A stretch of 64,000 bases of DNA from a virus (Duplodnaviria; Heunggongvirae; Uroviricota; Caudoviricetes). A program made the position numbers and the translations under genes. The DNA lies in the IMG/VR virus record IMGVR_UViG_3300008113_000307, positions 21,919 to 85,918 of that record; one strand, given 5' to 3'. Every line of letters starts with the position of its first letter. Positions within the stretch are counted from its first letter, which is position 1. The notes under the pieces were generated by a model. The model was not told the origin of the DNA. It saw nothing but the letters and a program-made list of their open reading frames with translations, and searched no databases. Positions 6,303 to 19,946 of the stretch are shown piece by piece.

Positions 6303-6331
6303 TTGACAACAATTGCAGATTGTTGTATAAT
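6303..6331 (+). promoter_or_regulatory. sigma70 consensus promoter
   Basis: TTGACA-17-TATAAT upstream of the second tRNA sub-cluster. Confidence 0.6.
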
Positions 6332-6443
6332 TAAGACTTAAACAAAAAGGTTACACTATGAAACGCTCAGGCAAACCCTAGTGTCATCCTGGTCCCCCGT
6401 ATGGTCCTGGATGGCACGTAAAAGACAATCTATTACGATCCAT

Positions 6444-6518
6444 CCATGCTAAACTTTGCTGGCGAAGTACCCGGCTCTTACCCGGACAAACTGAGTTCGA
6501 TTCTCAGAGCATGGACCA
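6444..6518 (+). tRNA. tRNA-Lys(CTT)
   Basis: Acceptor ccatgct/agcatgg perfect, D-stem actt/aagt, anticodon stem ccgg/ccgg with loop ctCTTac, T-loop ttcgatt, CCA. Confidence 0.5.
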
Positions 6519-6521
6519 TAT

Positions 6522-6596
6522 GGGGGCATAACTTAACGGCTAAAGTAGTCGGCTTTTAACCGACCTATCAGAGTTCAATTCTCTGTGCCCCTACCA
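6522..6596 (+). tRNA. tRNA-Lys(TTT)
   Basis: Acceptor gggggca/tgcccct, anticodon stem gtcgg/ccgac with loop ctTTTaa, T-loop ttcaatt, CCA. Confidence 0.7.
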
Positions 6597-6668
6597 TATG
6601 CAAACACATTAACAGCGTCGTGCCGGTCGCCGGACTTAGGTTGAATTCCTAATAGTGTGTTTACATAT

Positions 6669-6743
6669 GGTGTCGTTAGTTTAGTGGCAAAACCGCGGAT
6701 TGTGATTCCGCTATCATGAGTTCAATTCTCATACGATACCCCA
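6669..6743 (+). tRNA. tRNA-His(GTG) with extra 5' G(-1)
   Basis: Extra 5' g, acceptor gtgtcgt/acgatac, anticodon stem gcgga/tccgc with loop ttGTGat, C discriminator, CCA. Confidence 0.7.
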
Positions 6744-6789
6744 CATACCAAAATTACATAAGTTAGACTTAATCTACATAATTAATAAT

Positions 6790-7833
6790 ATGACAAATCA
6801 GTATAGTGACGTTCTCAATACTCATAAAATCATGTTCAACGATTCTATTAGAAATAATTTTTACAAAAAAATTTTAACTGGTTGCGTTGAGAACAAGCAC
6901 TGCGTAGAAGTGGGGTTTGGTACTGGCATTTTATCTGTTATTGCATGTGATCTTGGTGCAAAACATGTGATTGCATATGAGCACAATCTCGACACATACA
7001 ACTTTGGTCAGGAAATGATCAAAACTTTAAACTTGACCGACAGAATTTTATTGCTTAATGAAACATTTGAACCTTCCAAACTATCACAACATCATAAGAT
7101 AGATGTAATGTTTTCTGAAACAGTTGATAATGCGTTATGGGGGGAAGGTTGGTATCTCAATACATTTATTGATGACCCAAACATAAACATACTGCCCAAC
7201 AAATATTTTTTCGAATCTTTTTGTATTGAAGTCGAAGATAATTATGCTCAAGGGCTACTAATGGGTCCTGAACACTTGTGTAATCCAGGCATACCCATCA
7301 ATCATCAATTTGTTGATTTTATTAATCAACATCTCACATCTGGTGGTAGTAAAGATACGGTTGTATCTAAAATTGACGAGTATTACACTAATAAAATAGT
7401 TGACATAAGTTTGGCCAATCAAGGTACTTTTTGGGGATGGCACACCCAACTAATGGAAGCGTTTGATATTAGACAGAAAGTTGCCGATTTTCAATATGCA
7501 TTAGACCTTAACAAAAAAAACATAATTTTAACAGACAAATATAAAACAACTATAAAAAAAATAAACCCAGATTTATCGTCGATAGAATTTCAACTAAAAA
7601 TGGAAAATCCCGATTCTAATTATCTAATATTTTTTAGAGTAGGATTAGAATCCGGCAACGAAAAATTTTATTTAGATAGCGGACATTTTGGACCTTTCAG
7701 TTCAGCGTTTTTACTGAGAAGTTCTTCTAAAAATAAAATAGTAAATCTTTCACATAATTTGTTCGATGGCGGAATAACTGCTGAATACAATAAAAAAATT
7801 ATCAAAAAAGTTGCTTCGGATAATTGGGCATGA
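6790..7833 (+). CDS. Class I SAM-dependent methyltransferase, PRMT-like
   Basis: NDSIRNNFYKKIL, motif I VEVGFGTGILS, and IDVMFSETVDNALWGEGW resemble type I protein arginine methyltransferases; strongly AT-rich. Confidence 0.55.
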   Translation: MTNQYSDVLNTHKIMFNDSIRNNFYKKILTGCVENKHCVEVGFGTGILSVIACDLGAKHVIAYEHNLDTYNFGQEMIKTLNLTDRILLLNETFEPSKLSQHHKIDVMFSETVDNALWGEGWYLNTFIDDPNINILPNKYFFESFCIEVEDNYAQGLLMGPEHLCNPGIPINHQFVDFINQHLTSGGSKDTVVSKIDEYYTNKIVDISLANQGTFWGWHTQLMEAFDIRQKVADFQYALDLNKKNIILTDKYKTTIKKINPDLSSIEFQLKMENPDSNYLIFFRVGLESGNEKFYLDSGHFGPFSSAFLLRSSSKNKIVNLSHNLFDGGITAEYNKKIIKKVASDNWA

Positions 7834-7872
7834 CCTATTGCAACAATTAGGTTGGCCTTTCAACATAGACAT

Positions 7873-7947
7873 GGAAGTATAGCACAGCGGTAGTGCAGCA
7901 CCTTCATACGGTGTTGGTCAGTAGTTCGAATCTACTTACTTCCACCA
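7873..7947 (+). tRNA. tRNA-Met(CAT) (elongator Met or Ile2 precursor)
   Basis: Acceptor ggaagta/tacttcc perfect, anticodon stem gcacc/ggtgt with loop ttCATac, T-loop ttcgaat, CCA. Confidence 0.65.
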
Positions 7948-7948
7948 T

Positions 7949-8023
7949 GGGCCTTTGGTGAAATGGATATCATGCTGGTCTTCGAAACCAGCGGTGGGAG
8001 TTCGATCCTCTCAGGGCCCGCCA
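7949..8023 (+). tRNA. tRNA-Arg(TCG)
   Basis: Acceptor gggcctt/agggccc, anticodon stem ctggt/accag with loop ctTCGaa, CCA. Confidence 0.6.
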
Positions 8024-8201
8024 GTTATAACGATGCAATGAATCGCCTGGCTGATTCAGCGTCAACAAAATAGAACATGCGCAGGCTGTCGTCGTAAATA
8101 TCATTGACAATGATGTAGCCTGTGTTGTCGTTGCTCATGCTGAGATGGATTTGAATTCCGTCTGCGGTGAGAGTGTCGTAGATGTACATAAGTTTATTTA
8201 A

Positions 8202-8275
8202 GCGGGTAAGCTCAAGGTGAGACGTCAGCCTTCCAAGCTGCACTGAGTGGGGTTCGACTCCCCCTACCCGCTCCA
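8202..8275 (+). tRNA. tRNA-Gly(TCC)
   Basis: Acceptor gcgggta/tacccgc, anticodon stem cagc/gctg with loop ctTCCaa, T-loop ttcgact, CCA. Confidence 0.65.
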
Positions 8276-8281
8276 GTTTTT

Positions 8282-8355
8282 CTCGGTATGGTGAAATGGT
8301 ATCACTCGACGTTTGGGACGTTGGAGCGTAGGTTCGATTCCTGCTACCGAGACCA
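8282..8355 (+). tRNA. tRNA-Pro(TGG), second copy
   Basis: Acceptor ctcggta/taccgag perfect, D-stem gtga/tcac, anticodon stem cgacg/cgttg with loop ttTGGga, CCA. Confidence 0.55.
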
Positions 8356-8362
8356 TGACAAT

Positions 8363-8439
8363 GCACAGGTGGCGGAGTGGCCCAACGCAAGGGATTGCAA
8401 ATCCCTAAAACCGTGAGTTCAAATCTCACCCTGTGCTCC
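8363..8439 (+). tRNA. tRNA-Cys(GCA)
   Basis: Acceptor gcacagg/cctgtgc perfect, anticodon stem aggga/tccct with loop ttGCAaa, T-loop ttcaaat, CCA. Confidence 0.7.
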
Positions 8440-8445
8440 AGATAC

Positions 8446-8537
8446 GGAAAGTAATGCAGCGGGGATGGTCCTGCGACTGGCCTTGAAAACCAGGTTCTCT
8501 TAACAGGGATGGGGTTCGACTCCTCTGCTTTCCGCCA
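8446..8537 (+). tRNA. tRNA-Ser(TGA), type II
   Basis: Acceptor ggaaagt/gctttcc, anticodon loop ctTGAaa (reads UCA), long variable arm, T-loop ttcgact, CCA. Confidence 0.6.
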
Positions 8538-8557
8538 TAAGTACAGCAAAGGAGATC

Positions 8558-8728
8558 ATGATGACAAGATCAGCAATTTTTCAAAACAAAATTACTCGGG
8601 AACGCCTGATCTGCGACAACGTGGATCTTGTGCGTTGGTTTGATGGTGCGGCCTTTTTGTCAGTTCGGCGAGAAGGAACTGAACGACGTTTCCTAATTCG
8701 TCGCGATGCACTGCAAGAAATAGTATAA
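8558..8728 (+). CDS. Hypothetical small protein (56 aa)
   Basis: Strong RBS aaaggag 6 nt upstream of ATG; between tRNA-Ser and tRNA-Val. Confidence 0.5.
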   Translation: MMTRSAIFQNKITRERLICDNVDLVRWFDGAAFLSVRREGTERRFLIRRDALQEIV

Positions 8729-8737
8729 TTGACACAT

Positions 8738-8812
8738 GCCTGGTTAGCTCAGGGGGAGAGCGCTTCGTTTACACCGAAGATGTCCGCGGTTCGAAACCGT
8801 GACCAGGTACCA
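8738..8812 (+). tRNA. tRNA-Val(TAC)
   Basis: Acceptor gcctggt/accaggt, anticodon stem cttcg/cgaag with loop ttTACac, T-loop ttcgaaa, CCA. Confidence 0.65.
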
Positions 8813-8818
8813 AACATA

Positions 8819-8893
8819 GTCTCTGTAGTTCAATGGATAGAACAAGTTCCTCCTAAGAATTAGATATCAGTTCAATTCTGGTCAGAGACGCCA
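8819..8893 (+). tRNA. tRNA-Arg(CCT)
   Basis: Acceptor gtctctg/cagagac perfect, anticodon stem agttc/gaatt with loop ctCCTaa, T-loop ttcaatt, CCA. Confidence 0.6.
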
Positions 8894-8933
8894 ATCTTGC
8901 GATAGTGGTGGCATCAATAATTTTATTTTTACT

Positions 8934-9782
8934 GTGATTAATTATTTTACCGATAATCTCCTATTTGCATATTATCCACAGGGCGCTGGGGGGAAATTTT
9001 TACTTAACTGCATTGGATTAAGTGATCATTCCGTATTACAATCTAGAGCACTAGTGGTAAAACAACTTGAAAATAATTTTAATCAAGACCAAAAATTTAA
9101 TTGGTTACTGGAAAAAATTAAATATGCTAAAAAAAGAAAACACTGGAATGATCTGGACCTTGGTTGTACTGAATTGTTTGGACAGGAAGATCAACCATAT
9201 TATCCAGAAATAGACATACTATCTAACTCACATTTAATTTTTTCCAAAGTAGCACACAGTTATAATGTGTTGCTAGACGCAACTAACACTTGGCCCAATG
9301 CAAAAATTTTGCAACTAGAAAATTGTCATAACTTTATTTCAGCATATAGATCTCATACTTTGTCCAATCCAGCAGCCCCCGAACCTGATATTTTGTCATT
9401 AGTTTGGAAAAATATTAGAGATCAATCATGGCCAGTTAATCATCCCACTACGCTAGAAGAATACAATCAATTAGATATTAAAATTCGTAATGAAGATCAA
9501 TACATGCATAATCATTCAATTTTACAAGAGATTATTAAATGCAAACAACTGAATTATCGGCTATTGCAAAATATCAACGTTATTAAATGGGACTGTGATT
9601 GGTTTTTTGATTGTGATGTTTGTGTTGATCAATTAAGTACAGTATATCAAAAACTTTGTTTACCTGACTTCGATCGAAAAAAAATTAAAGCCTATTTTTT
9701 AGCCTGGATAGACTGTCTAGATACTATAGACAAAGATCAAAAGAAAAATCTCAGAAGCAATAAAAGCCAAATGGGAAGATAG
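8934..9782 (+). CDS. Hypothetical protein (282 aa), AT-rich
   Basis: Long low-GC ORF embedded in tRNA array; GTG start; no family recognised. Confidence 0.5.
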   Translation: MINYFTDNLLFAYYPQGAGGKFLLNCIGLSDHSVLQSRALVVKQLENNFNQDQKFNWLLEKIKYAKKRKHWNDLDLGCTELFGQEDQPYYPEIDILSNSHLIFSKVAHSYNVLLDATNTWPNAKILQLENCHNFISAYRSHTLSNPAAPEPDILSLVWKNIRDQSWPVNHPTTLEEYNQLDIKIRNEDQYMHNHSILQEIIKCKQLNYRLLQNINVIKWDCDWFFDCDVCVDQLSTVYQKLCLPDFDRKKIKAYFLAWIDCLDTIDKDQKKNLRSNKSQMGR

Positions 9783-9788
9783 AAAAAT

Positions 9789-9873
9789 GCGGATGTGGCG
9801 TAATTGGTAGCCGCACCAGATTTAGGTTCTGGCGTTGAAAGGCGTGGGGGTTCGAGTCCCTTCATCCGCACCA
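9789..9873 (+). tRNA. tRNA-Leu(TAG), type II
   Basis: Acceptor gcggatg/catccgc perfect, anticodon stem ccaga/tctgg with loop ttTAGgt (reads CUA), long variable arm, CCA. Confidence 0.65.
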
Positions 9874-9921
9874 AGACTCTCCCTGACACACGGAGTATAA
9901 TAGGACAAGTAGTGTGTTTCC

Positions 9922-9995
9922 AGGTCATTAGCTCAAAGGTAGAGCGGTGCATTGACATTGCACATACAGCGGATCGTTACCGTTATGACCTACCA
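9922..9995 (+). tRNA. tRNA-Val(GAC), T-loop ATCGTTA
   Basis: Acceptor aggtcat/atgacct perfect, D-arm gctc-aaaggta-gagc, anticodon stem gtgca/tgcac with loop ttGACat, CCA. Confidence 0.55.
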
Positions 9996-10003
9996 AACAT
10001 CAT

Positions 10004-10080
10004 GCCTTTGTAGCCGAATTGGTATAGGCACTGCGTTGAGGTCGCAGGTTCTGCTGGTTCGAGTCCAGTCAAAGGCACCA
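10004..10080 (+). tRNA. tRNA with Leu anticodon GAG but short (type I) variable arm
   Basis: Acceptor gcctttg/caaaggc perfect, anticodon stem ctgcg/cgcag with loop ttGAGgt, 5-nt variable region, T-loop ttcgagt, CCA. Confidence 0.5.
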
Positions 10081-10085
10081 TTTTT

Positions 10086-10157
10086 AGCGTCACTCTGGCT
10101 GATCTAACTGGGGTCCAATCCCGGTAGTCAAAGGTTCGATTCCTGCAGGCGCTGCCA
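10086..10157 (+). tRNA. Short tRNA-like element with Trp anticodon CCA and reduced D-arm
   Basis: Acceptor 6/7, anticodon stem ctggg/cccgg with loop gtCCAat, T-loop ttcgatt, CCA; only 69 nt before CCA. Confidence 0.35.
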
Positions 10158-10335
10158 TTTTTGCAAACACAAAACCGTGCAGGGGCAATCCCCCGGCTGG
10201 CCCTGTGCAGTGATGCATAACCAGCGGATCAGGTGTCGGGGTGAGAGGCCCCGGGTCGTTTCTGGTGGAAACAGCATCTAGTAACGATGCTGACGACAGC
10301 AGTGCCCTGCACGAAACCAGGTGTTTGCGTTTTTA

Positions 10336-10364
10336 TCGACCAAAAATCAAGAACACAGTATAAT
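10336..10364 (+). promoter_or_regulatory. sigma70-like promoter
   Basis: TCGACC-17-TATAAT, ATG 7 nt downstream at 10371. Confidence 0.5.
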
Positions 10365-10370
10365 AGAAAC

Positions 10371-10601
10371 ATGTATAAATTAATAAACAAAGCAGGCACA
10401 GAACTAGATGGATTTGAGACCTTGGACTCTGCTATGCAAGCCGCAAAGGCAGTGGGCTTCTTTGTGACCATTGCAGGACCGGACTTTGAAGTGTGTGGTC
10501 GGTTTGGAGTAGACACTGTTCGAAACGGGCTGTGCCCAGATGGTGTTAAATACGATTGGAACAAAGCTAGTCGCATTGGCGCAACTAAACGAAAAAGATA
10601 A
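10371..10601 (+). CDS. Hypothetical small protein (76 aa)
   Basis: First ATG after promoter; ends 2 nt before next gene. Confidence 0.5.
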
Positions 10602-10603
10602 AA

Positions 10604-11008
10604 ATGCTGGATAGATTGTTTACAGGTCTTGAAGATATACAAACAAAAACTTGCGGAATGTGTTTGAAAACTCTACCGCTAACTATGTTCGGTAACGACG
10701 GCGGCGCAAAATATCTTAGATATGAGTGCAAGACATGTGCAAAAGCTCAAAGCAAATTGTTAAAAACAATTAAAAAATCTGCACCAGCAATTCCTAAAGA
10801 TTACAAGTGTCCAATTTGCAAGCGTAATGAGCAAGAAGCTAAAGGACATAATCCCAACAAAAAAGGAATTTGGTGTGCCGACCACAATCATGCATCGGGT
10901 AAATTTAGAGGTTGGCTATGTCACAAATGCAATTTAGGATTAGGCAATATGAACGATGACATAGATAGATTAGAAGCTGCTATCAAATATTTAAAGGAGA
11001 AACCATGA
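10604..11008 (+). CDS. Recombination endonuclease VII family protein
   Basis: Cys clusters plus [25 protein letters not shown]...LEAAIKYL match the T4 endo VII signature. Confidence 0.75.
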
Positions 11009-11676
11009 AACGTGTGATTGAAATTCGTGCTGCCGAAGGCGGCGAAGACTCTAAGTTGTTTGTGCAAGATCTTGCACAGGCCTACATCAAGTTTGCTCAC
11101 AGCAAAGGCTGAGCTGCCCGCCTGACAAATCAGATGGCCGGCGAGCAGCATGTGTTGGTCGAAGGCGGTGATTTATCAGGCTTGACGAACGAAGCAGGAG
11201 GGCATCGTATTCAACGAGTGCCGCCTACCGAACGCAAAGGCCGTGTGCATACCAGCACAGTGACAGTGGCCATAGTTGACCCCCGAACCATTGCTACCAC
11301 CATTCGAGAGAGTGATCTCTATGTAGAGTGGTATTCAGGTACAGGTGCTGGAGGGCAGTATCGCAACAAGCATCAAAACTCATGTAGAATCACACATGTG
11401 CCCACCGGCATCACTGCCAAGTCTGAGTGCCGAAGCCGAGCCAACAGTTTGGCTGAAGCTACCCAGGCCATACAGCAACGAGTTGACCACGTGCTACAAA
11501 GTCGCTATAATAGTGCAGTGGCACAGGATCGACGTTCACAAGTGGGCACTGGCCAGCGAGGAGACAAAATACGCACCTATAGATTTCAAGACGATGTCAC
11601 ACAAGACCATGTGACTGGACAACGTGCCAGCACACGACGAGTGTTACAGGGAAACTTTGATCTCTTGTGGAACTGA
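11005..11676 (+). CDS. Truncated class I release factor (RF1-like, domains 2-4) interrupted by an in-frame TGA at 11110-11112
   Basis: ATGA overlap with upstream gene; [34 protein letters not shown] aligns with RF1 VRAGTGGDEAALFAGDL..ARRW; downstream [12 protein letters not shown] (PxT motif), SGTGAGGQ and [13 protein letters not shown] match RF1 domains 3-4. Confidence 0.8.
11113..11149 (+). promoter_or_regulatory. Stable hairpin directly 3' of the in-frame TGA (candidate recoding/readthrough stimulator)
   Basis: gctgcccgcc pairs with ggcgagcagc (9 of 10 bp) around a 17-nt loop, starting at the first nucleotide after the stop codon. Confidence 0.55.
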
Positions 11677-11810
11677 TGCGTAAATAGAAACAGGTGGCGT
11701 CCAGCCTGGACCTCTACTGCACTGGTCTGCAGACATGTCAAACTAGAACGGGTGAGTTGAGGAGCCGCAGGTGCCAAAGGCCTGCACTGGATTCGGTAAC
11801 CAGTATTTTT

Positions 11811-11888
11811 GCCCCTGTGGACAAATTGGCAAAGTCGCTTCTCTCAAAAGGAAGAGTGTTCTCAGTTCGACTCTGAGCAGGGGTACCA
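11811..11888 (+). tRNA. Solitary type-I tRNA with anticodon CAA (Leu UUG codon), A73 discriminator
   Basis: Acceptor gcccctg/caggggt, D-stem gac/gtc with 11-nt loop, anticodon stem cttct/ggaag with loop ctCAAaa, T-loop ttcgact, CCA; sits 130 nt after the release-factor gene. Confidence 0.55.
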
Positions 11889-11905
11889 TTTAAAGAAAGA
11901 ACCAT

Positions 11906-12376
11906 ATGAAGCAAATCAATCTAGACGAAGTCACACAGTTTATCCAGGCACAGACACCAGAAACCAAGATCTATCTTGGTTGCGACTCGGAACGCCTGCG
12001 AGTGGACGGTGACTGGTACGCGGATTACGTGCTGGCCATTGTGGTTCACATCAACGGCAACAATGGCTGCAAACTGTTTGGCGAAGTGCATCGGGAACGT
12101 GTATGGGATGCCAAGCCCAGCAAGCCCAGCATGAGGCTCATGACCGAAGTGTACAAGGTTTCCGAACTGTACTTGAAGTTGGCCGAAGTGCTGGAAGGCA
12201 GGCATGTGGAAGTGCATTTGGACATCAACCCCAACGAAATGCACGGCAGCTCATGCGTGATCAGCCAGGCCATAGGCTACATCAAGGGCACCTGCAACGT
12301 GGTGCCATTTGTGAAACCTGAAGCTTTTGCTGCCAGTTACGCCGCAGACCGATTCAAAGGCCTGCGAGTAGCATAA
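11906..12376 (+). CDS. YkuK/DUF458-like RNase H-fold protein
   Basis: IYLGCDSE, VLAIVVH, EVHLDINPNE, GYIKG..VKPEAFAASYAADRF follow the conserved blocks of the B. subtilis YkuK family. Confidence 0.55.
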   Translation: MKQINLDEVTQFIQAQTPETKIYLGCDSERLRVDGDWYADYVLAIVVHINGNNGCKLFGEVHRERVWDAKPSKPSMRLMTEVYKVSELYLKLAEVLEGRHVEVHLDINPNEMHGSSCVISQAIGYIKGTCNVVPFVKPEAFAASYAADRFKGLRVA

Positions 12377-12379
12377 CAA

Positions 12380-12404
12380 AAACCCGCTGAGGCGGGTTTT
12401 TTTG
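12380..12404 (+). terminator. Rho-independent terminator
   Basis: aacccgc-tga-ggcgggtt stem followed by T7. Confidence 0.7.
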
Positions 12405-12473
12405 TGGCTGCTAATAGGCAATGCCAAACAGTACCATTGGAAAATACAATAGCTAAAACCTATGGAAACCGCT

Positions 12474-12502
12474 TGACCTGTAGGTATTTTATGCTATATA
12501 AT
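12474..12502 (+). promoter_or_regulatory. sigma70-like promoter with extended -10
   Basis: TTGACC-17-TGC-TATATAAT upstream of ahpC. Confidence 0.55.
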
Positions 12503-12567
12503 ACTTTATGACATCAGCACAGACTGTGCTGACTCGATCCAATCAACATTTATACATAGGAGAAATA

Positions 12568-13107
12568 ATGAAAACAGTTGGCGATAAATTGACTAAATTT
12601 GCAGTGACCGGTGTCCGGCCCGGGCAACCTGAAGACGCATTCTTCACAATCACAGACGAGAGCTTTGCAGGCAAGTGGAAAGTGATTGTGTATTACCCCA
12701 AGGACTTTACCTTTGTATGCCCAACAGAAATCGTTGCATACGATAAATTGACTGGTGACTTTGCTGATCGTGATGCAGTGTTGCTGACCGGTTCGACAGA
12801 CAATGAGTTCTGCAAGGTTGCTTGGCAAACTGCTCATGAAGATCTCAAGAAGATCACCCACACTCAGTTTGCTGATACACAGCGTGGTGAGTTGAGCTTG
12901 ATCGAACAACTGGGCGTGTTCTACGCTCCAGCAGGTGCTGCCCTTCGTGCCACATTCATTGTTGACCCCAACAACGAGATCCAGCACGTGACTGTCAACA
13001 ACTTGAACGTGGGTCGTAGCCCAGAAGAAACTTTGCGTGTACTTGACGCACTGCAAACTGGTGAACTGTGTGCATGTAACCGTACTGTGGGCGGGGAGAC
13101 ACTGTAA
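12568..13107 (+). CDS. ahpC: Peroxiredoxin AhpC (typical 2-Cys)
   Basis: RBS aggagaaataATG; peroxidatic-Cys motif FTFVCPTEI and C-terminal GELCACN resolving-Cys region. Confidence 0.85.
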   Translation: MKTVGDKLTKFAVTGVRPGQPEDAFFTITDESFAGKWKVIVYYPKDFTFVCPTEIVAYDKLTGDFADRDAVLLTGSTDNEFCKVAWQTAHEDLKKITHTQFADTQRGELSLIEQLGVFYAPAGAALRATFIVDPNNEIQHVTVNNLNVGRSPEETLRVLDALQTGELCACNRTVGGETL

Positions 13108-13613
13108 TGGCATTCATCGACGCAGTTAAAGGTGCGTTGCCAGAATACGCAAAGGACACCAAGTTAAATCTTGACGCTGTTCTTTTGCGTAGTACTCTAG
13201 ATGCGGATGTGGCCATGGGGTGTGCTGTGGCTGCATTGGCTGCAACCGGCAACGGCAAAGTACTCAGCATCATGTTGGCCGATGCGCCTGTGCATGCAGA
13301 ACCAGCAATGACAGCAGCCAGCATCATGGCCCAAAACAACGTTTGGTATCCTTACGTTGAAATGGCAGATGATCCGGCACTGAAAGGCCTGCCTGCTCAG
13401 TTGCGTATGAATGCTATTGCGTCACACGGCGGAACTACCAAGGCCAACTTTGAAGCGTTCTCGTTGGCAGCAAGTATTGTGGGCAAGTGTCACTTCTGTG
13501 TCAAAGCACACTATGATACTCTAAAGGCAGAAGGCTACACTGTAGAGAACTTGCGTGATATCGGACGTATTGCCAGTGTCATGAATGCTGTGGCCAAAGT
13601 GCTCAACAGTTAA
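13107..13613 (+). CDS. ahpD: AhpD-like alkylhydroperoxidase (carboxymuconolactone decarboxylase family)
   Basis: ATG overlaps ahpC stop (TAATG); CxxC-type motif KCHFCVKAH; size 168 aa. Confidence 0.65.
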   Translation: MAFIDAVKGALPEYAKDTKLNLDAVLLRSTLDADVAMGCAVAALAATGNGKVLSIMLADAPVHAEPAMTAASIMAQNNVWYPYVEMADDPALKGLPAQLRMNAIASHGGTTKANFEAFSLAASIVGKCHFCVKAHYDTLKAEGYTVENLRDIGRIASVMNAVAKVLNS

Positions 13614-13792
13614 GGAATCGCGATGCAAATTCGAGTACAAGAAGATTCTGAAGATTTTGGTGCCTGCGGCTGCGGCCGTAGTCCAGATGGCAAGTGCATT
13701 GGGTGGCATGCTCTGTCGCCACAAGAATACGAAGATGCGTTGGTTAAATACGAAGCACAGTTGTTTAGTGAGCCTCCTCAGGACCAAACCAG

Positions 13793-13821
13793 TTGACCTT
13801 GTGGGCTAGGCGTGTTATACT
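13793..13821 (+). promoter_or_regulatory. sigma70-like promoter
   Basis: TTGACC-17-TATACT upstream of 13852 gene. Confidence 0.5.
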
Positions 13822-13851
13822 GTGACACACTGCAAACTTACAAGGAAGCCT

Positions 13852-14136
13852 ATGAGCACTGAACAAGATCGATTCAAGAACTCAAAACGTCGTCTACGTG
13901 ACGAGTCGGCAGTGAAAAAGCAAACCAAAATTGCCAAGGCATACGGAGTTCCTGTAACGGAGCCCCACAAGTTTGCCAAACATCATGCCATGAACTGTGG
14001 AAACCCAGATTGTGTCATGTGTGGTAACCCACGCAAGACGTTCAATGAACTGACCGCACAAGAACAGCGACTGTTTCAGGACACCGAAGCAATCCGTAAC
14101 CGCCATTCAAACGGCACACAAGAGGAAACACCATGA
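13852..14136 (+). CDS. Hypothetical zinc-ribbon-like small protein
   Basis: NCGNPDCVMCGNPR four-Cys motif; basic N-terminus. Confidence 0.5.
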   Translation: MSTEQDRFKNSKRRLRDESAVKKQTKIAKAYGVPVTEPHKFAKHHAMNCGNPDCVMCGNPRKTFNELTAQEQRLFQDTEAIRNRHSNGTQEETP

Positions 14137-14384
14137 GAGACATTGATAGAACTGCTGGCCTGACCAGTCAAGCTGCTGTGGAAGCCATTGGCAATCGTTA
14201 CAACCTGGTGCTGGTGGCATCTCAACGCATGCGAGAGCTGGCCCGTGGCAGTGCCAGGCGAGTGACATCTCGATATGGTGACGGTGTTACTACCTTGTTG
14301 GAAATCGAGCAGGGCAAGGTAGGTATTGATTACCTGATGAAAGCCCCGCAAGTTGAGCAACGAAGACGATCAAATCCTCGTTGA
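14133..14384 (+). CDS. rpoZ: RNA polymerase omega subunit (RpoZ)-like protein
   Basis: AVEAIGNRYNLVLVASQRMRELARG aligns with E. coli RpoZ [23 protein letters not shown]; RBS agaggaaaca; 83 aa. Confidence 0.65.
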   Translation: MRDIDRTAGLTSQAAVEAIGNRYNLVLVASQRMRELARGSARRVTSRYGDGVTTLLEIEQGKVGIDYLMKAPQVEQRRRSNPR

Positions 14385-14398
14385 CAGCAAACTACAAT

Positions 14399-14431
14399 CC
14401 TGCTACAATAAAACATAGCAGGATTTTTTTT
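14399..14431 (+). terminator. Rho-independent terminator
   Basis: cctgcta-caataaaaca-tagcagg followed by a T9 run. Confidence 0.7.
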
Positions 14432-14438
14432 GGAGAGC

Positions 14439-14936
14439 ATGATGCCCTGGATTCAAAACGTAGCACTCAGTGATGTCAAAAAAGGACATCATGTTCGCGT
14501 GGGCGAGAATAGCATGCTGATTCAGATTGTGGATCCTGACATGGAGCATCCTGCTCCTGCACACCAGTTTAAGGAAGTGTATCAGTTCCGCTTTTTGGAT
14601 CTAGAACACAATGACGACTGCATCAACGATGCCTGGAAGATCCAGGACCAGGATGCTAAACAGTTGGTTGGCCTGTTGCAACATGCCCTGGACAATCGCA
14701 TGGACGTGGTTGTGCACTGTGTGGCAGGCGTTTGCCGTAGTGGTGCAGTTGCCGAAGTCGGAGTCATGATGGGCTTTGACGACACCGAAGTGTTCCGCAG
14801 TCCCAATCTCTTGGTCAAGCACAAGATGATGAAGCAGTTGGGCTGGACATATGATGAGAACGAGCCACACACCATTAATGGTGTGATGTTGGATTCGGGT
14901 ATCATCATCCCTAAATCAAGAGACGGAGATATTTGA
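14439..14936 (+). CDS. Protein tyrosine / dual-specificity phosphatase (CX5R)
   Basis: Active-site signature VVHCVAGVCRSGAV; start could be TTG 14430, ATG 14439 or ATG 14442 after ggagag. Confidence 0.7.
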   Translation: MMPWIQNVALSDVKKGHHVRVGENSMLIQIVDPDMEHPAPAHQFKEVYQFRFLDLEHNDDCINDAWKIQDQDAKQLVGLLQHALDNRMDVVVHCVAGVCRSGAVAEVGVMMGFDDTEVFRSPNLLVKHKMMKQLGWTYDENEPHTINGVMLDSGIIIPKSRDGDI

Positions 14937-15127
14937 TGTATTTGCATAGAGAAGATTTAAAAAAGATGTTGGAAATTTTAGAAAAGTTTCCAGAGGTTGA
15001 TGTGGTAGATGTCCAAGTTGACAACAGTTCAGGCATTGGATCGCATACTACCATGCACTTAGTGACCCAGGTCAACGGGATCGACGGTACTTTGGAAGTT
15101 GTTGTTTCCAGCGTAGAGAACTGGTAA
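14933..15127 (+). CDS. Hypothetical small acidic protein
   Basis: ATGA overlap with phosphatase stop; 64 aa. Confidence 0.45.
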   Translation: MMYLHREDLKKMLEILEKFPEVDVVDVQVDNSSGIGSHTTMHLVTQVNGIDGTLEVVVSSVENW

Positions 15128-15132
15128 CCGAT

Positions 15133-15186
15133 TTGACCTAAATTCACACCTGTGCTATAATACAGCATAGGTTAACAAAACAGGAG
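15133..15186 (+). promoter_or_regulatory. Promoter-leader cassette copy 1
   Basis: TTGACC-17-TGTGCTATAAT followed by conserved leader cagcataggttaacaaaacaGGAG and ATG 15193. Confidence 0.65.
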
Positions 15187-15192
15187 TCCAAA

Positions 15193-15366
15193 ATGGTACA
15201 TGCATGGGAAGTCAGCTCTGTTGATCAAGGGGACACTCGTTACCGTGTCGCCCGGGTATACATCAATGCCAACGGCAAGTATACTGTGGAAAAACACCCC
15301 CGCACTTTTGCCTCTCTTGACGCCGCAGAAAAAATTGCCCGAAAACTGAATTTGGTTGACCAATAA
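15193..15366 (+). CDS. Hypothetical small protein (57 aa)
   Basis: Directly downstream of cassette RBS; below the 60-aa cutoff of the ORF track. Confidence 0.5.
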   Translation: MVHAWEVSSVDQGDTRYRVARVYINANGKYTVEKHPRTFASLDAAEKIARKLNLVDQ

Positions 15367-15409
15367 TACCCGATTTGCTATAATAAAGCATAGGTTAACA
15401 AAACAGGAG
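15355..15409 (+). promoter_or_regulatory. Promoter-leader cassette copy 2
   Basis: TTGACC-18-TGCTATAAT then aagcataggttaacaaaacaGGAG, ATG 15416. Confidence 0.6.
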
Positions 15410-15415
15410 CTCAAG

Positions 15416-15685
15416 ATGTCCAAAAGTATCACCCTGCAGATGTTTAGTGACCCCGGCCACGGTTGGGTTCGTTTCCCCAAAGCACGCCTGGCCCGACTGG
15501 GTATTGCTGAAAAGATTTCGGCCTACAGTTATCAGAACGGTGCCATGGCATTCCTGGAAGAAGACTGTGACGTCTCGGTGCTGATCACTGCACTCCGAGC
15601 TCATGGCTATGAGGACATTCGATTCCGTGGCGGTGCCAGCAATCGTCAAAGCAAGATTCGCAATTTTGAATACTACCGTGCCTGA
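15416..15685 (+). CDS. Hypothetical protein (89 aa)
   Basis: Start set at cassette ATG rather than the upstream TTG of the ORF track. Confidence 0.5.
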   Translation: MSKSITLQMFSDPGHGWVRFPKARLARLGIAEKISAYSYQNGAMAFLEEDCDVSVLITALRAHGYEDIRFRGGASNRQSKIRNFEYYRA

Positions 15686-15699
15686 CCCAGGAGCACCAG

Positions 15700-15963
15700 A
15701 TGTATATCGCAATGATGAAACATGCTGAACAAGAGCAGATTGTGAGAGCACTGAAAGGTTGGCAGTTTGATCGCGACACTCATGGTAGCCTCTACGATCG
15801 CGGTGCGTCAGACTCATACTACGGACGCAACCCCAAACCGCACTATGGTGGTGTTGGTGGTGGCTCAGGTCCAACGGTGCCGGTCACCGATGAAGCTAGT
15901 GTTGCTGAATACCTGGCCGGCTACCAAGACAACGAACAGTCAGGTGCCAAAAAAGAATGGTGA
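15700..15963 (+). CDS. Hypothetical Gly-rich protein (87 aa)
   Basis: ORF followed by bidirectional terminator. Confidence 0.45.
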   Translation: MYIAMMKHAEQEQIVRALKGWQFDRDTHGSLYDRGASDSYYGRNPKPHYGGVGGGSGPTVPVTDEASVAEYLAGYQDNEQSGAKKEW

Positions 15964-15980
15964 TTGTTGTTGGTCACGAA

Positions 15981-16006
15981 AAAGCCCCAATGGGGCTTTT
16001 TTCTTT
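15981..16006. terminator. Bidirectional rho-independent terminator
   Basis: aaagcccc-aat-ggggcttt 8-bp stem flanked by A-run and T-run; convergent genes on both sides. Confidence 0.7.
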
Positions 16007-16505
16007 ATCTTGGATAAAGCAAGAAATCTTCTGTTGAACCATCGGCGTCAGTTCTGTTGCCTACGATTGGTGTAGGTCTTCCTTGCACTAGATCAACAAT
16101 CATGCCGTTGTTGGATTTCAGCGACTCTACTGAGTTGTTGCTGTGAGTAATAGCAACATCTGTACTTTTACCAATGGCGTAGACTTGAGTAAGACTGGGT
16201 ACCAATACGCTGGCCCACTTGAGCATGGTGTCGCCGAAGCTGGTTGGTGCGGCAATCTGTTGCGAGCCTTGCGAGCCTTGCGACTGACCTTGTGAGCCAA
16301 ACTGCAGGCTCATGACCGCGGCCACTCTGGCAGCAGTGTCGCCACTGGCAGCAATTTCTTTGAGTGCGTTGGTCCTGGCAATGTCAGCTTCAGATTTGGA
16401 CACTGCAATCTGTTGCTGTGTTTGTGCATACAATGCATAGTTGCTTGTGGCACATCCTGTTAGAAACATTGCGCCCACGGCAATGGCAATTAGGGATTTT
16501 TTCAT
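16005..16505 (-). CDS. Lipoprotein (signal peptide with lipobox LTGC)
   Basis: MKKSLIAIAVGAMFLTGC; RBS aagga upstream on minus strand; only minus-strand gene in this region; SQG repeats. Confidence 0.65.
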   Translation of the reverse strand: MKKSLIAIAVGAMFLTGCATSNYALYAQTQQQIAVSKSEADIARTNALKEIAASGDTAARVAAVMSLQFGSQGQSQGSQGSQQIAAPTSFGDTMLKWASVLVPSLTQVYAIGKSTDVAITHSNNSVESLKSNNGMIVDLVQGRPTPIVGNRTDADGSTEDFLLYPR

Positions 16506-16599
16506 TTGGGATTTTCCTTAGGGTAAGGGCCCTTAAAGAATGTACTAAACCGCTAGGACATTTTCTAAGAAGTCTCTACGGTTATTTATAAATATTTTT

Positions 16600-16896
16600 A
16601 TGACACATCGAAAACACATTGAAGCACTGGTAGAATCTGCCGGCGATTTATGGGCCAAATCGGCCCGTTTTGAGCTGATAGATGTTGATTCTACCAGTTA
16701 TACTTGGCACGTGACCAGTCAAAACACTGTGTACGAAATCTACTACAGTGACAGCGGTGTTATTTCTCTTACGGCACTGCCCTCCAAATGCTGGCCCGGC
16801 AGCAGATCTAGAGAAATCTACAGCGGCAACAATAGTCAATCCAGTTACCAACACATGATTGGACTGCTGGCTGACAATTTGATCGATTTGGTTTGA
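16600..16896 (+). CDS. Hypothetical protein (98 aa)
   Basis: ORF between lipoprotein gene and kinase gene. Confidence 0.4.
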   Translation: MTHRKHIEALVESAGDLWAKSARFELIDVDSTSYTWHVTSQNTVYEIYYSDSGVISLTALPSKCWPGSRSREIYSGNNSQSSYQHMIGLLADNLIDLV

Positions 16897-16921
16897 CAAA
16901 AAACACAAGATAGCATATACT
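16893..16921 (+). promoter_or_regulatory. sigma70-like promoter
   Basis: TTGACA-17-TATACT ending 8 nt before ATG 16929. Confidence 0.5.
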
Positions 16922-16928
16922 GTATGCT

Positions 16929-17402
16929 ATGTCAAATAGTCCTACTGTATATGTGTTGATTGGCTTGCCGGCCGCTGGCAAAAGCACCTGGGTGTCTCAG
17001 CAAGATTGGGCCAGCACTTGTGCCTACATCAGCACCGATCACTATGTGGATCGCTTTGCGGCTCGTATGGGTCAGACTTATAACCAGGTGTTTGAGACTG
17101 TGATGCCCCGGGCCATACGGCTCATGATGCGAGCAGTGCGACGAGCACAGGCTCGGGGTCAAGACATCATCTGGGATCAGACCAACCTGACTCGGGCCAG
17201 TCGTGTCAAAAAGTTTAGAATCCTGCCTGAGTATCGTGCAGTGGCAGTGGTGTTTGCTGCTCCTGAGCCTGAAGAACATGCTCGCAGGCTTGCCAGTCGT
17301 CCGGGCAAGCGGATACCTGACGCAGTGCTGGCCGACATGATTCAGAGTTATGAGCCGCCCGATGAAGGCGAAGGCTTCGAGGAGATTTGGTATGCCCAGT
17401 GA
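16929..17402 (+). CDS. P-loop kinase, polynucleotide kinase (T4 Pnk kinase-domain)-like
   Basis: Walker A GLPAAGKSTW and downstream IWDQTNL / R-rich blocks resemble T4 PNK N-terminal kinase domain; no phosphatase domain. Confidence 0.55.
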   Translation: MSNSPTVYVLIGLPAAGKSTWVSQQDWASTCAYISTDHYVDRFAARMGQTYNQVFETVMPRAIRLMMRAVRRAQARGQDIIWDQTNLTRASRVKKFRILPEYRAVAVVFAAPEPEEHARRLASRPGKRIPDAVLADMIQSYEPPDEGEGFEEIWYAQ

Positions 17403-17604
17403 TGCTGTTGTGTGTCGAGGATGCGGCACTGCAAAAGACTCTGACCGTTGGGGGCAATGGTGGCACCTCAACGGCTACTATGGCTTCCGCGGCAGTTTTT
17501 GTCAAAACTGCTACAGCATGATCTCGCATGATGCCGACGGCAAGCCTTGCAATCCTGGGCAACATCTGTTCATGGTGCTGAAACTACAGAAAGAAAACAC
17601 ATGA
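17392..17604 (+). CDS. Hypothetical Cys-rich small protein
   Basis: CRGCG...CQNC zinc-ribbon-like; overlaps kinase stop. Confidence 0.4.
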   Translation: MPSDAVVCRGCGTAKDSDRWGQWWHLNGYYGFRGSFCQNCYSMISHDADGKPCNPGQHLFMVLKLQKENT

Positions 17605-18116
17605 CTCAAACTGTTCGACGCAAGCCCTTGACCGACAAAGAAGAACGTGTACTGGCCTATGCCCAACTCATGGGTGTGGAGGTGTCCAGCATGAGCCGCA
17701 TTGCCAACCGCATGCGAGCCCAGGCTCTGGAACAAGAAAACGCCCGAACCGTGGCCACGGTGATCAGCGACTATGAGTGGACAGTGGTCAGCAGTGAACA
17801 TCCGCGACAGGTGTATGAGATCTTGAACAAAAGCACAGGTTGGCGTTGGCACTGTCGGTGCACTGGTCGTGGGGCATCATCCTGGCTCAGCGTGGGCTGG
17901 GAGTTTGAAGTAACTTGGACTGCACCCGATGGCACTGCGGGAAAAGAACTGCCCAGCCCCAGTCAACCCCGAGATCTGCAACTGCGATTGTTGCCCGAGC
18001 GTGACCGAGCACTGTATAGCCTGATTCGCTGGATCAGGAACCAGGACTGGGATTATCTTCTCCGTCGGTGTCAAAAACAACAACAGCAAACCAAAAAGAA
18101 AAAGCCTCGACCCTGA
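17601..18116 (+). CDS. Hypothetical protein (171 aa)
   Basis: ATGA overlap; internal Met after purine-rich stretch. Confidence 0.45.
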   Translation: MTQTVRRKPLTDKEERVLAYAQLMGVEVSSMSRIANRMRAQALEQENARTVATVISDYEWTVVSSEHPRQVYEILNKSTGWRWHCRCTGRGASSWLSVGWEFEVTWTAPDGTAGKELPSPSQPRDLQLRLLPERDRALYSLIRWIRNQDWDYLLRRCQKQQQQTKKKKPRP

Positions 18117-18166
18117 TTTGCTCAATATTCCTGTTTGTGCTATAATACATGTATAGCGAAAAGGAG
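18117..18166 (+). promoter_or_regulatory. Promoter-leader cassette variant
   Basis: TTGCTC-18-TGTGCTATAAT then acatgtatagcgaaAAGGAG, ATG 18173. Confidence 0.55.
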
Positions 18167-18172
18167 TTGATT

Positions 18173-18676
18173 ATGGACATGACAGAAAGAGCCCGCGTGT
18201 TTGCCACTGCCGCACATGCCGCTGTGGGTCAACTCCGCAAGTATACGCACGAACCTTACATAGTGCACCCCGCTGAAGTGGTGAGCATTGTGCAAACTGT
18301 GCCGCATACCGAAGCCATGTTGGCCGCGGCCTGGTTGCATGATGTAGTGGAAGACACCGGCGTCACAATAGAAACTGTGCGAGCCGAATTCGGAACAGCG
18401 GTTGCGGACTTGGTGTCATGGTTGACTGATGTGAGTCGTCCCGAACAGGGCAATCGTGCACATCGCAAGGCCTTGGACCGTGCACACACTGCAGCCGCTC
18501 CGGCTGAAGCACAGACTGTGAAGTTGGCTGATTTGATCTCCAACACTCGTAGCATCGTGGCTCACGACGCCAAGTTTGCTGAAACTTACCTCGCAGAAAA
18601 GAGGTTGTTGTTGGAGGTAATGACCCGGGGCGATGCCACGTTGATGGCCATAGCCCGTAGAAATATTGGAGCATGA
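18173..18676 (+). CDS. HD-domain phosphohydrolase, RelA/SpoT-hydrolase-like
   Basis: HEPYIVHPAEV...AAWLHDVVEDT matches the (p)ppGpp hydrolase HD signature. Confidence 0.6.
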   Translation: MDMTERARVFATAAHAAVGQLRKYTHEPYIVHPAEVVSIVQTVPHTEAMLAAAWLHDVVEDTGVTIETVRAEFGTAVADLVSWLTDVSRPEQGNRAHRKALDRAHTAAAPAEAQTVKLADLISNTRSIVAHDAKFAETYLAEKRLLLEVMTRGDATLMAIARRNIGA

Positions 18677-18677
18677 T

Positions 18678-18812
18678 ATGAGCCAGCGTCAATGGACTGT
18701 GAAAATCTGGGACGGGTATTCCAACAGTGAATATCAACGTCAAGGCACGTATCAGCAGGTGGCAAATAGTCTGGCAGGACTGCCACCTGCATATATTTGG
18801 AGCATGATATGA
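18678..18812 (+). CDS. Hypothetical small protein (44 aa)
   Basis: Preceded by ttggagcatgatATG, the same motif that precedes the next gene. Confidence 0.35.
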   Translation: MSQRQWTVKIWDGYSNSEYQRQGTYQQVANSLAGLPPAYIWSMI

Positions 18813-19105
18813 ACCCACGTATTCGAGAACTGATGGTTGAACTCAAAAAGACTGTTTCGACTCATCGTGGTGCTGAAGTGCTAGCTGGCTATGATGAGAT
18901 TGAAAAGTTCGCCGAGTTGATTGTGCGGGAATGTATGACAGTAACTAAAGATTACACCTGTAATCAAGGTTGGGATTATTCTGCACCTGTTGCATTAGCA
19001 AGGCATTTTGGATTTGGAGTTGAAGAATGGAACAACTATTTGACAAATTGCTCAACCAAGCCATCGACGGCGGTGATGAAACATCGTTTCGGAGTTGAAC
19101 AATGA
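18809..19105 (+). CDS. Small-protein paralog family member 1 (MNxRIxEL...KFAELIVREC...HFGVE)
   Basis: Conserved N-terminus MNPRIREL, central KFAELIVRECM and C-terminal HFGFGVEEW. Confidence 0.55.
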   Translation: MNPRIRELMVELKKTVSTHRGAEVLAGYDEIEKFAELIVRECMTVTKDYTCNQGWDYSAPVALARHFGFGVEEWNNYLTNCSTKPSTAVMKHRFGVEQ

Positions 19106-19305
19106 ACGAACGAATTCGAGAACTTAGAGAACAGGCTTGGGCACTGGTATCTGATGAAGAACGAGATTGTGGCGAATTGTATGAGACACGGTGGGAACGA
19201 TGTGATCAAAAGTTCGCCGAGTTGATTGTGAGAGAATGTGCCTTACAGTGCGTTCATAATGAAGATATGGACCTGATTGAAAAACATTTCGGAGTTGAAG
19301 AATGA
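19102..19305 (+). CDS. Paralog family member 2
   Basis: MNERIRELREQ...KFAELIVRECA...KHFGVEE. Confidence 0.55.
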   Translation: MNERIRELREQAWALVSDEERDCGELYETRWERCDQKFAELIVRECALQCVHNEDMDLIEKHFGVEE

Positions 19306-19461
19306 AACTACATTTATATTATGTTGTTCAAGGCAGTGAAGCCGCAGGTTACACACTAGTCAACGGTCCATTCTCCTCATTGGATCGGGCGCTTGACGCT
19401 AAATCTGGTCAGCTGTTCAGCGAAGGTATGACTGTTGTTAAACACACAATCGAGGTTACGA

Positions 19462-19722
19462 ATGAACGAACGAATCAATAAACTTGCTCTACAGGCTGAA
19501 CAATATGCCCGGGATGACTTAATTGAACGCCGTGCAGTGGGTGCTCCGCTCTATACTGAGGGTGAATATGAGAACAAGATCAAGCAAAAGTTTGCTGAGT
19601 TGATTGTGCTGGAATGTGCTGGATTATTTCCAAATGTGTATGTAGAAATTGAAAACGAATACGGGCACACTCCTGTTATTGCGGCGGACTATATAAAAGA
19701 ACATTTCGGAGTTGAATCATGA
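19462..19722 (+). CDS. Paralog family member 3
   Basis: MNERINKLALQAEQ...KFAELIVLECAG...KEHFGVES. Confidence 0.55.
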   Translation: MNERINKLALQAEQYARDDLIERRAVGAPLYTEGEYENKIKQKFAELIVLECAGLFPNVYVEIENEYGHTPVIAADYIKEHFGVES

Positions 19723-19946
19723 TTGAGCCAATCGTGCCTGTCACACTGTATAAAACAACCTTCACTGGTGTGTTGGCCTCGGCGGCTGTGGGCAAGGGTC
19801 GAGTAGAGAGCGAAATGTGGAGTCAGACTCTGTATCCCAACGGCAGTGCAGTGACTCGAATATATCATCAATCGATTGAAGTGTATGACCACAGAGCAGT
19901 GGTCACTCAGCACAATGTTCGACCCAATCTGGATGTAATGGCATGA
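19719..19946 (+). CDS. Hypothetical protein (75 aa)
   Basis: ATGA overlap with preceding paralog. Confidence 0.4.
   Translation: MIEPIVPVTLYKTTFTGVLASAAVGKGRVESEMWSQTLYPNGSAVTRIYHQSIEVYDHRAVVTQHNVRPNLDVMA

Follow-up and report, generated by a model that had tools for sequence, protein, structure and literature searches.

The stretch of DNA analyzed here, called the window, is 64,000 nt long and comes from the IMG/VR record IMGVR_UViG_3300008113_000307 (positions 21,919-85,918 of the record; all coordinates below are window positions). Its subject is a pair of consecutive genes, ahpC and ahpD, which are predicted to encode a peroxiredoxin and an alkylhydroperoxidase D, respectively. The pair and the signals around it are laid out as follows:

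12382-12403, + strand: intrinsic-terminator-like hairpin, ACCCGC-TGAG-GCGGGT and then seven consecutive T, read from the sequence and unlisted in the consensus scan
12473-12502, + strand: sigma-70-type promoter-like site, TTGACC-18 nt-TATAAT, with 11 of 12 consensus matches
12514-12532, + strand: leader stem-loop, TCAGCACA-GAC-TGTGCTGA, starting 12 nt past the -10 hexamer, about -10.6 kcal/mol
12558-12563, + strand: Shine-Dalgarno-like AGGAGA of ahpC, read from the sequence; AAGGAGA is kept in relatives
12568-13107, + strand: ahpC, 179 aa, ATG at 12568 and TAA at 13105-13107; predicted typical 2-Cys peroxiredoxin of the AhpD-partnered (Mycobacterium tuberculosis) type
13093-13099, + strand: Shine-Dalgarno-like GGGGAGA of ahpD, within the 3' end of ahpC, 8 nt ahead of the ATG
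13107-13613, + strand: ahpD, 168 aa, ATG at 13107 and stop at 13611-13613; predicted alkylhydroperoxidase D
13623-13796, + strand: 57-aa Cys-rich open reading frame (ORF) from the ORF list, starting 10 nt past ahpD

The first-pass annotation of this DNA had placed at 12568-13613 an AhpC with the motif FTFVCPTEI, translationally coupled through TAATG to a CxxC protein of the AhpD family, and this description agrees with the present analysis. The motif occupies residues 47-55 of a protein that matches Pfam AhpC-TSA, the stop codon of ahpC and the start codon of ahpD overlap by one base in the TAATG at 13105-13109, and the CHFC of the second protein occupies residues 128-131. A longer ahpC ORF begins at 12508; because this start falls directly past the -10 hexamer, in the would-be 5' leader, and because the cellular homologues begin with MKTVGDKL, the start codon was assigned to 12568. 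An antisense ORF at 12550-13113 was rejected as a gene, being 49% conserved versus 88% for the sense frame in the comparison with the related contig L092. Upstream, the hairpin at 12382-12403 closes an RNaseH-like gene (11906-12376) and sets the cassette apart from it. Downstream, the consensus scan listed nothing terminator-like on the + strand from 13613 up to 13793, where the next promoter-like site lies, and the 57-aa Cys-rich ORF is therefore probably co-transcribed with the pair. This ORF was considered as a third component of the cassette and discarded, its homologue being missing beside ahpD in 80 IMG/VR loci; in the related locus L099, a homologue is placed between ahpC and ahpD.

By sequence, AhpC falls among the AhpD-partnered peroxiredoxins of the M. 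tuberculosis type: it has both a peroxidatic Cys and, at the C-terminus, a C-x-C. Among solved structures it is matched best by M. tuberculosis AhpC (2BMX, E 1.2e-44), and the eukaryotic and AhpF-type peroxiredoxins follow far behind. An alignment with residue mapping gives 52% identity between the phage protein and M. tuberculosis AhpC. Pro44, Thr48, Cys51, and Arg127 of the phage protein correspond to Pro54, Thr58, Cys61, and Arg133 of the mycobacterial enzyme, so that both the PxxxTxxC peroxidatic motif and the active-site Arg are present. Likewise, Cys168 and Cys170, located near the C-terminus in the sequence GELCACN, correspond to Cys174 and Cys176, which supplies the resolving Cys. The residues Cys51, Cys168, and Cys170 are invariant in 85 phage copies, in 4 copies on contigs regarded below as mis-binned phage DNA, and in 72 copies from Burkholderiales.

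The second gene product is matched along its whole length by the NCBIfam model TIGR00777, and it barely reaches the threshold of the AhpD core-domain model TIGR00778 (28.0 versus 27.8). By sequence, its only matches among solved structures are the M. tuberculosis AhpD entries (1GU9/1KNC, E 4.7e-24), with 42% identity between the phage and mycobacterial proteins. The alignment pairs Glu116, Cys128, Cys131, and His135 of the phage protein with Glu118, Cys130, Cys133, and His137 of M. tuberculosis AhpD; the catalytic Cys and His residues, on whose presence the first-pass assignment had been made to depend, are thus all in place. Cys128, Cys131, and His135 are invariant in 92 phage copies, in 5 copies on mis-binned phage contigs, and in 75 Burkholderiales copies, and Glu116 is invariant in the phage alignment (n = 18). 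The AlphaFold model of the protein (pLDDT 75.5) is all helical, with low confidence at residues 77-95. Compared by Foldseek, it superimposes on 1KNC with a TM-score of 0.75 across 170 columns, versus 0.54 at most for other CMD-family "AhpD-like" structures, which argues for a full-length AhpD rather than a generic CMD protein. A profile search with Pfam AhpC-TSA and CMD, proposed at the first pass as a check, returned 74 bits for AhpC-TSA (cut-off 26) and 37.7 bits for CMD (cut-off 23), both far beyond chance.

The chemistry of AhpC-AhpD systems is textbook, and the two genes probably encode a working thiol relay of this kind in a large freshwater phage. Host RNA polymerase would transcribe the pair, probably early in infection. 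Cys51 of AhpC would then reduce hydrogen peroxide, organic hydroperoxides, or peroxynitrite and be converted into a sulfenic acid, which Cys168 or Cys170 of the partner subunit would resolve to a disulfide. This disulfide would be attacked by Cys131 of AhpD, activated via His135 and Glu116, after which Cys128 would resolve the mixed disulfide and leave AhpD oxidized. The re-reduction of AhpD would fall to a host dihydrolipoyl protein, namely the E2 component of a 2-oxoacid dehydrogenase, together with Lpd and NADH. In M. tuberculosis, re-reduction of AhpD by a dihydrolipoyl protein with Lpd and NADH is presented as established in PMC8945050, citing Bryk 2002 and Hillas 2000. For the phage, the benefit would be to limit peroxide damage in the infected cell while it replicates in oxic water. 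This benefit, the activity, the electron donor, and the early expression are inferred; what the analysis shows directly is that the genes are intact and linked, that the catalytic residues and the fold are in place, and that the pair is under selection behind a conserved promoter.

The pair had been taken at the first pass as a phage-encoded auxiliary gene set, and the surrounding DNA bears this out through its tRNA genes, its phage families, and its synteny with IMG/VR contigs. The tRNA genes number 31 and form an array from 667 to 11888, exclusively on the + strand and with small ORFs interspersed; a tRNA-Ile(tat) and two tRNA-Met are among these tRNAs. Near the cassette lie an endonuclease VII gene, a release-factor-like gene, and phage-specific families, and baseplate-wedge-like and virion proteins are encoded at 57-64 kb of the window. 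One structural protein (57324-59033) has only distant matches to the jumbo phages Atu_ph07, Phosso, and PA5oct. A megablast search of positions 10000-30000 against 50,697 phage records gave no match, and a sensitive blastn search of the cassette against phage genomes matched solely an "UNVERIFIED_ORG" Ralstonia phage record. By these comparisons, the window belongs to a phage without a sequenced cultured relative. A 12.4-kb freshwater contig from JGI encodes an identical AhpD within an unchanged gene order, and an 89%-identical AhpD lies midway in a 360-kb contig rich in small phage-type genes that also encodes IF3, S21, ClpX, ClpS, and HSP20. The "moraphage" group, with phages of up to 307 kb, was considered as the lineage; the paper describing it mentions no peroxiredoxin or oxidative-stress genes (PMC12619734), and it does not appear to be the same group.

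The pair is widespread among viral contigs. At least 594 IMG/VR contigs encode an AhpD of this kind, and the best 80 of these, on which the locus analyses are based, are 89-95% identical at the protein level; the contigs are 320-357 kb long in seven cases. A full ahpC is found 5' of ahpD on the same strand in 77 of the 80 loci, and the other three are interrupted by a contig end. Purifying selection on the pair is strong: as calculated from 64-68 distinct phage coding sequences, ahpC has a median dN/dS of 0.076 and ahpD one of 0.053, the median dS being above 1. Such saturated synonymous divergence points to long retention under selection rather than to a recent spread. The flanking genes mostly differ among related loci, and those that are shared are about 50-80% identical; since the flanks are absent or diverged, the pair ranks among the best-conserved genes of a very plastic region. 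In the automatic annotation of JGI, metagenome proteins of this kind are labeled "alkyl hydroperoxide reductase subunit D" and "lipoyl-dependent peroxiredoxin subunit C/D".

The spacing between the two genes varies among the 77 loci: a TAATG overlap or a gap of at most 25 nt occurs in 32 of them, a gap of 26-700 nt in 29, and one of 0.7-3 kb in 16. The coupling noted at the first pass is therefore present in the window phage and belongs to the 32 loci with an overlap or a short gap, but it is not a fixed feature, and the relatives in which the genes are separated indicate that stoichiometric translational coupling is not required. On the available loci, it characterizes the window phage and some of its clade rather than the module itself. 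The junction is also an insertion hotspot in related phages, among them L008, L015, L019, L024, L036, L060, L063, L076, and L082. The inserted genes comprise a class II aldolase (19 loci), an alternative oxidase, Bax1-I, TerC, a c-type cytochrome, PsiE, and a GDSL-like hydrolase, along with NUMOD3 homing endonucleases and small ORFs that are found elsewhere in the early region of the window.

The cellular relatives were sought in one genome per bacterial or archaeal species, and the best-scoring genomes were used for the trees. The top AhpD matches (89, 72, 65, 65, and 52%) are on short contigs in metagenome bins labeled Haliscomenobacter, Hydrogenophaga, Beijerinckiaceae, Acidimicrobiaceae, Bacteroidota, and Fischerella. 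Mis-binned phage DNA is the likely identity of five of these contigs, namely L092, L094, L095, L096, and L099 (GTDB bins Haliscomenobacter, Beijerinckiaceae, Acidimicrobiaceae, Bacteroidota, and Fischerella): the genes of L092 follow the order seen in the window, arrays of 7-8 tRNAs are present on L094 and L096, and L099 has small phage ORFs in common with the window, the basis being thinner for L095. The genuine cellular matches are nearly all from Burkholderiales, that is, Burkholderia, Paraburkholderia, Undibacterium, Cupriavidus, Caldimonas, Piscinibacterium, and Mycoavidus. In these bacteria, AhpD is 47-57% identical and the AhpC encoded upstream 61-65% identical to the phage proteins, ahpC lies 5' of ahpD on the same strand in nearly all loci and is adjacent to it in the closest genomes, and the AhpD motif GKCHFCVK is common to phages and bacteria.

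In neighbor-joining trees of AhpC and AhpD, both rooted with M. tuberculosis, the phage copies cluster in a single clade that neighbors the Burkholderiales sampled, a pattern that probably reflects a single old acquisition of the pair from a bacterium. A Burkholderiales donor is provisional, because the sampling of the trees was limited to the best-scoring genomes. The first-pass annotation had likened the arrangement to that of actinobacteria; the M. tuberculosis-type proteins and their order fit this comparison, but the nearest cellular relatives found are Burkholderiales, not actinobacteria. The affinity with Burkholderiales is a hint and not a host call; the cyanophage-like inserts at the junction, namely alternative oxidase and class II aldolase, and the report that viral ahpC is abundant in Microcystis-associated viruses of Lake Erie (PMC12542629) point elsewhere.

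Regarding expression, the promoter-like site at 12473-12502 gives substance to the earlier suggestion that the pair has its own promoter, and it is kept in relatives. A TTGAyy-17/18-TAyAAT site is found 5' of ahpC in most of them. Of 65 distinct upstream regions, 61 have a best site with at least 9 of 12 matches, usually some 60-90 nt ahead of the start codon. Within positions 1-20000 of the window there are 11 sites with at least 11 of 12 sigma-70 matches, every one on the + strand, and this density and common orientation suggest that the host polymerase transcribes the region. Two promoter-like sites, at 5102-5130 and 6303-6331 on the + strand, are perfect (12 of 12).

By its distance from the -10 hexamer, the stem-loop at 12514-12532 would lie near the 5' end of the predicted transcript. 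An RNAalifold run on a MAFFT alignment of 33 leaders returned no consensus structure; because the hairpins are misaligned there, each leader was instead searched for stems individually, with shuffled controls. A perfect stem of at least 5 bp within 40 nt past the -10 hexamer is present in 42 of 45 distinct leaders of related phages, versus 22% of the shuffled leaders. The stems begin 1-13 nt past the hexamer and have 26 different sequences, and a comparable hairpin is missing from most of the other promoter-like sites of the window. Since the pairing is kept while the sequence of the stem varies, the simplest reading is that the RNA itself is under constraint, and the hairpin may serve as a 5'-terminal stabilizing element.

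Several observations weigh against a working relay of the M. tuberculosis type. Both proteins score below the curated cut-offs of their NCBIfam models, with 110.6 versus 272 bits for AhpC (TIGR03137) and 117.1 versus 191.95 bits for AhpD (TIGR00777). As controls, M. tuberculosis AhpC (129.6) and Cupriavidus AhpC (119.3) likewise fail the cut-off of 272, and TIGR00777 gives 116.4 bits for Cupriavidus AhpD and 115.1 for Piscinibacterium AhpD, versus 305 for M. tuberculosis AhpD. Because the Burkholderiales AhpD and M. tuberculosis AhpC controls are low as well, the scores reflect a property of the branch and not of the phage copies. TIGR03137 defines the AhpF-type AhpC, a group outside which the phage protein falls, and, going by the AhpD scores, the cut-off of TIGR00777 divides the actinobacterial AhpD from a proteobacterial-and-phage branch. 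In addition, His132 of M. tuberculosis AhpD is replaced by Phe130 in the phage protein, which has a His at position 129 instead (CHFC versus CSHC); the CHFC motif also occurs in the sampled Burkholderiales AhpDs, and, to our knowledge, His132 is not essential for the activity of the mycobacterial enzyme. Moreover, a limited and weak tblastn test with four E. coli queries (thioredoxin, glutaredoxin, the AceF lipoyl domain, and GcvH) gave no credible match to a lipoyl-domain protein, thioredoxin, or glutaredoxin in the 64-kb window. As no reductant of AhpD was detected in the window by this limited search, the cassette does not appear to be self-sufficient, and its initial description as a full antioxidant cassette was overstated. 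Finally, in more than half of the relatives (45 of 77 loci) 0.2-3 kb of unrelated genes separate ahpC from ahpD, a layout that would suit proteins acting separately. In that case, AhpC would be recycled by host thioredoxin or be a redox-switched chaperone itself, and AhpD would serve other clients, such as Ohr/OsmC-type peroxidases or other disulfides, or be a weak peroxidase; a direct peroxidase activity has been reported for AhpD, as has its reduction of OsmC/Ohr in Corynebacterium (PMC8945050). Separate action is nevertheless unlikely: wherever the upstream sequence is long enough, both genes are present, with order and strand unchanged, their trees are congruent and their constraint is equal, AhpC has the C-x-C of the mycobacterial enzyme that partners AhpD, and the closest cellular homologues are ahpC-ahpD operons.

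It is less likely still that the pair acts mainly in counter-defense, protecting the phage from a host response based on reactive oxygen species that kills or arrests infected cells. The genes do sit in a promoter-dense region of small, fast-changing genes, where takeover and anti-defense functions are usually found, and the junction inserts include members of stress and cell-death families (Bax1-I, TerC, PsiE, and alternative oxidase); no target defense system was identified, however, and the enzymology would be identical to that of the relay, with only the source of the peroxide differing (a host response instead of the environment or metabolism). The idea that the genes are host DNA, brought in by mis-assembly or as a prophage flank, is very improbable. 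It draws on the only INPHARED record with both genes, ON170345.1 (L001, "UNVERIFIED_ORG Ralstonia phage YO375_1"), whose region is probably Ralstonia host DNA because the trees place its two proteins with those of Cupriavidus and Burkholderia. The window copies differ from this case, in that the gene order was assembled independently in several JGI and ENA samples, the gene is carried by the hundreds of IMG/VR contigs counted above and lies far from the ends of those of 320-357 kb, the flanks are phage-like on both sides, the GC content is continuous with the surroundings, and even the closest cellular proteins share just 47-65% identity.

The AhpC-AhpD relay remains the preferred reading, and its sequences group the phage pair with the AhpD-partnered AhpC systems known from M. 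tuberculosis and from Burkholderiales. As in M. tuberculosis, ahpC precedes ahpD, no ahpF is present in the window, AhpC combines the PxxxTxxC motif with a C-terminal C-x-C, and AhpD is a full-length helical protein with the Glu/Cys-x-x-Cys/His set. It differs from the mycobacterial system in its level of identity (52% for AhpC and 42% for AhpD), in the CHFC of AhpD in place of CSHC, in its TIGR00777 score (117 versus 305), and in being phage-borne. The resemblance to the ahpC-ahpD operons of Burkholderiales, such as ahpC1D1 of Paraburkholderia xenovorans and AhpCD of Burkholderia thailandensis, extends to the gene order, the adjacency, the GKCHFCVK motif, and the NCBIfam scores. Burkholderiales ahpC-ahpD systems have been described, and the AhpCD system of B. 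thailandensis is stated there to have been characterized (PMC8859910). Here the differences are that most phage AhpCs end in CAC, as in M. tuberculosis, whereas the Burkholderiales proteins examined end in CPC; that the window AhpC is about 6 residues shorter; that the phage copies form their own clade; and that the phage pair has a constitutive-looking sigma-70 promoter with a leader hairpin.

Peroxiredoxins with thioredoxin or glutaredoxin partners are known from other phages; the cyanomyovirus S-SCSM2R, for example, encodes a peroxiredoxin, a thioredoxin, a glutaredoxin, an alternative oxidase, and a class II aldolase (PMC12801897). The window phage resembles such cases in carrying a peroxiredoxin together with a matching thiol reductase, but, unlike in the cyanophage sets, the partner is AhpD, which implies the lipoyl-dependent route, and not thioredoxin. 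In the phage genome collection, no other phage AhpC homologue exceeds 36% identity or is accompanied by AhpD, and no description of a phage ahpC-ahpD pair was found in the literature covered, which excludes subscription journals. What is new, modestly, is that the lipoyl-dependent (AhpD) version occurs as a pair in phages, that it is kept at about 90% protein identity and a dN/dS of about 0.05 across hundreds of viral contigs, and that it would have to rely on a reductant from the host. Confirmation of the function would mean that peroxide stress genuinely limits how large phages replicate in oxic lakes. The pair would also be a convenient marker gene for a phage clade that has been mis-binned into several published bacterial genome bins.

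A broader synthesis, doubtful as a whole, would hold that the pair is near-core in abundant, undescribed freshwater phages of 320-360 kb and that host-lipoyl coupling, a junction serving as landing site, and control by the leader hairpin all belong to one module. In such phages, the pair may use the lipoylated 2-oxoacid dehydrogenases of the host to make the infected cell peroxide-tolerant, possibly in catalase-poor hosts. The junction may be a preferred landing site for stress and redox genes (alternative oxidase, cytochrome c, class II aldolase, Bax1-I, TerC, and PsiE), and the conserved leader hairpin may be a dedicated control or stabilizing element of the module.

Other genes assigned in the window, downstream of the cassette, are the following:

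14133-14384: phage-encoded RNA polymerase omega (Rpb6/RpoZ)-like protein, close behind the cassette, as are the next three
14430-14936: dual-specificity-phosphatase-like protein
16929-17402: AAA_33 kinase-like protein
18149-18676: HD_4 domain protein
23450-24703: TctA-family tricarboxylate transporter subunit
25867-27006: MoxR-like AAA ATPase, 88% identical in L092, a conservation equal to that of AhpC/AhpD
43009-53201, - strand: Nol-like carbamoyltransferase, then several paralogous radical SAM proteins, two of them with a SPASM match

The radical SAM genes at 45-53 kb were considered as LipA and rejected, as they are SPASM-type paralogues and not lipoyl synthase. Radical SAM proteins are peroxide-sensitive Fe-S enzymes, and a link between them and the antioxidant pair is conceivable. 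A family of small ORFs is present in at least four tandem-like copies within 19102-20809, where a single query from L008 matches 19102-19302, 19462-19716, 19977-20192, and 20585-20809.

The release-factor-like gene upstream of the cassette (11005-11676, + strand) encodes a truncated class-I release-factor homologue, consisting of the end of the PCRF domain and an RF-1 domain with GGQ. Its reading frame is broken by an in-frame TGA at 11110-11112, past which the protein continues in the same frame, and a TGA is found at the same codon in the 65%-identical homologue of L013. The position is presumably one at which E. coli RF1 has a Trp. TGA is the commonest stop codon in the window, ending 27 of 58 long ORFs, and no suppressor is found among the 31 tRNAs. 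From its sequence context, the TGA of the release-factor homologue looks like prfB-style read-through autoregulation rather than genome-wide recoding.

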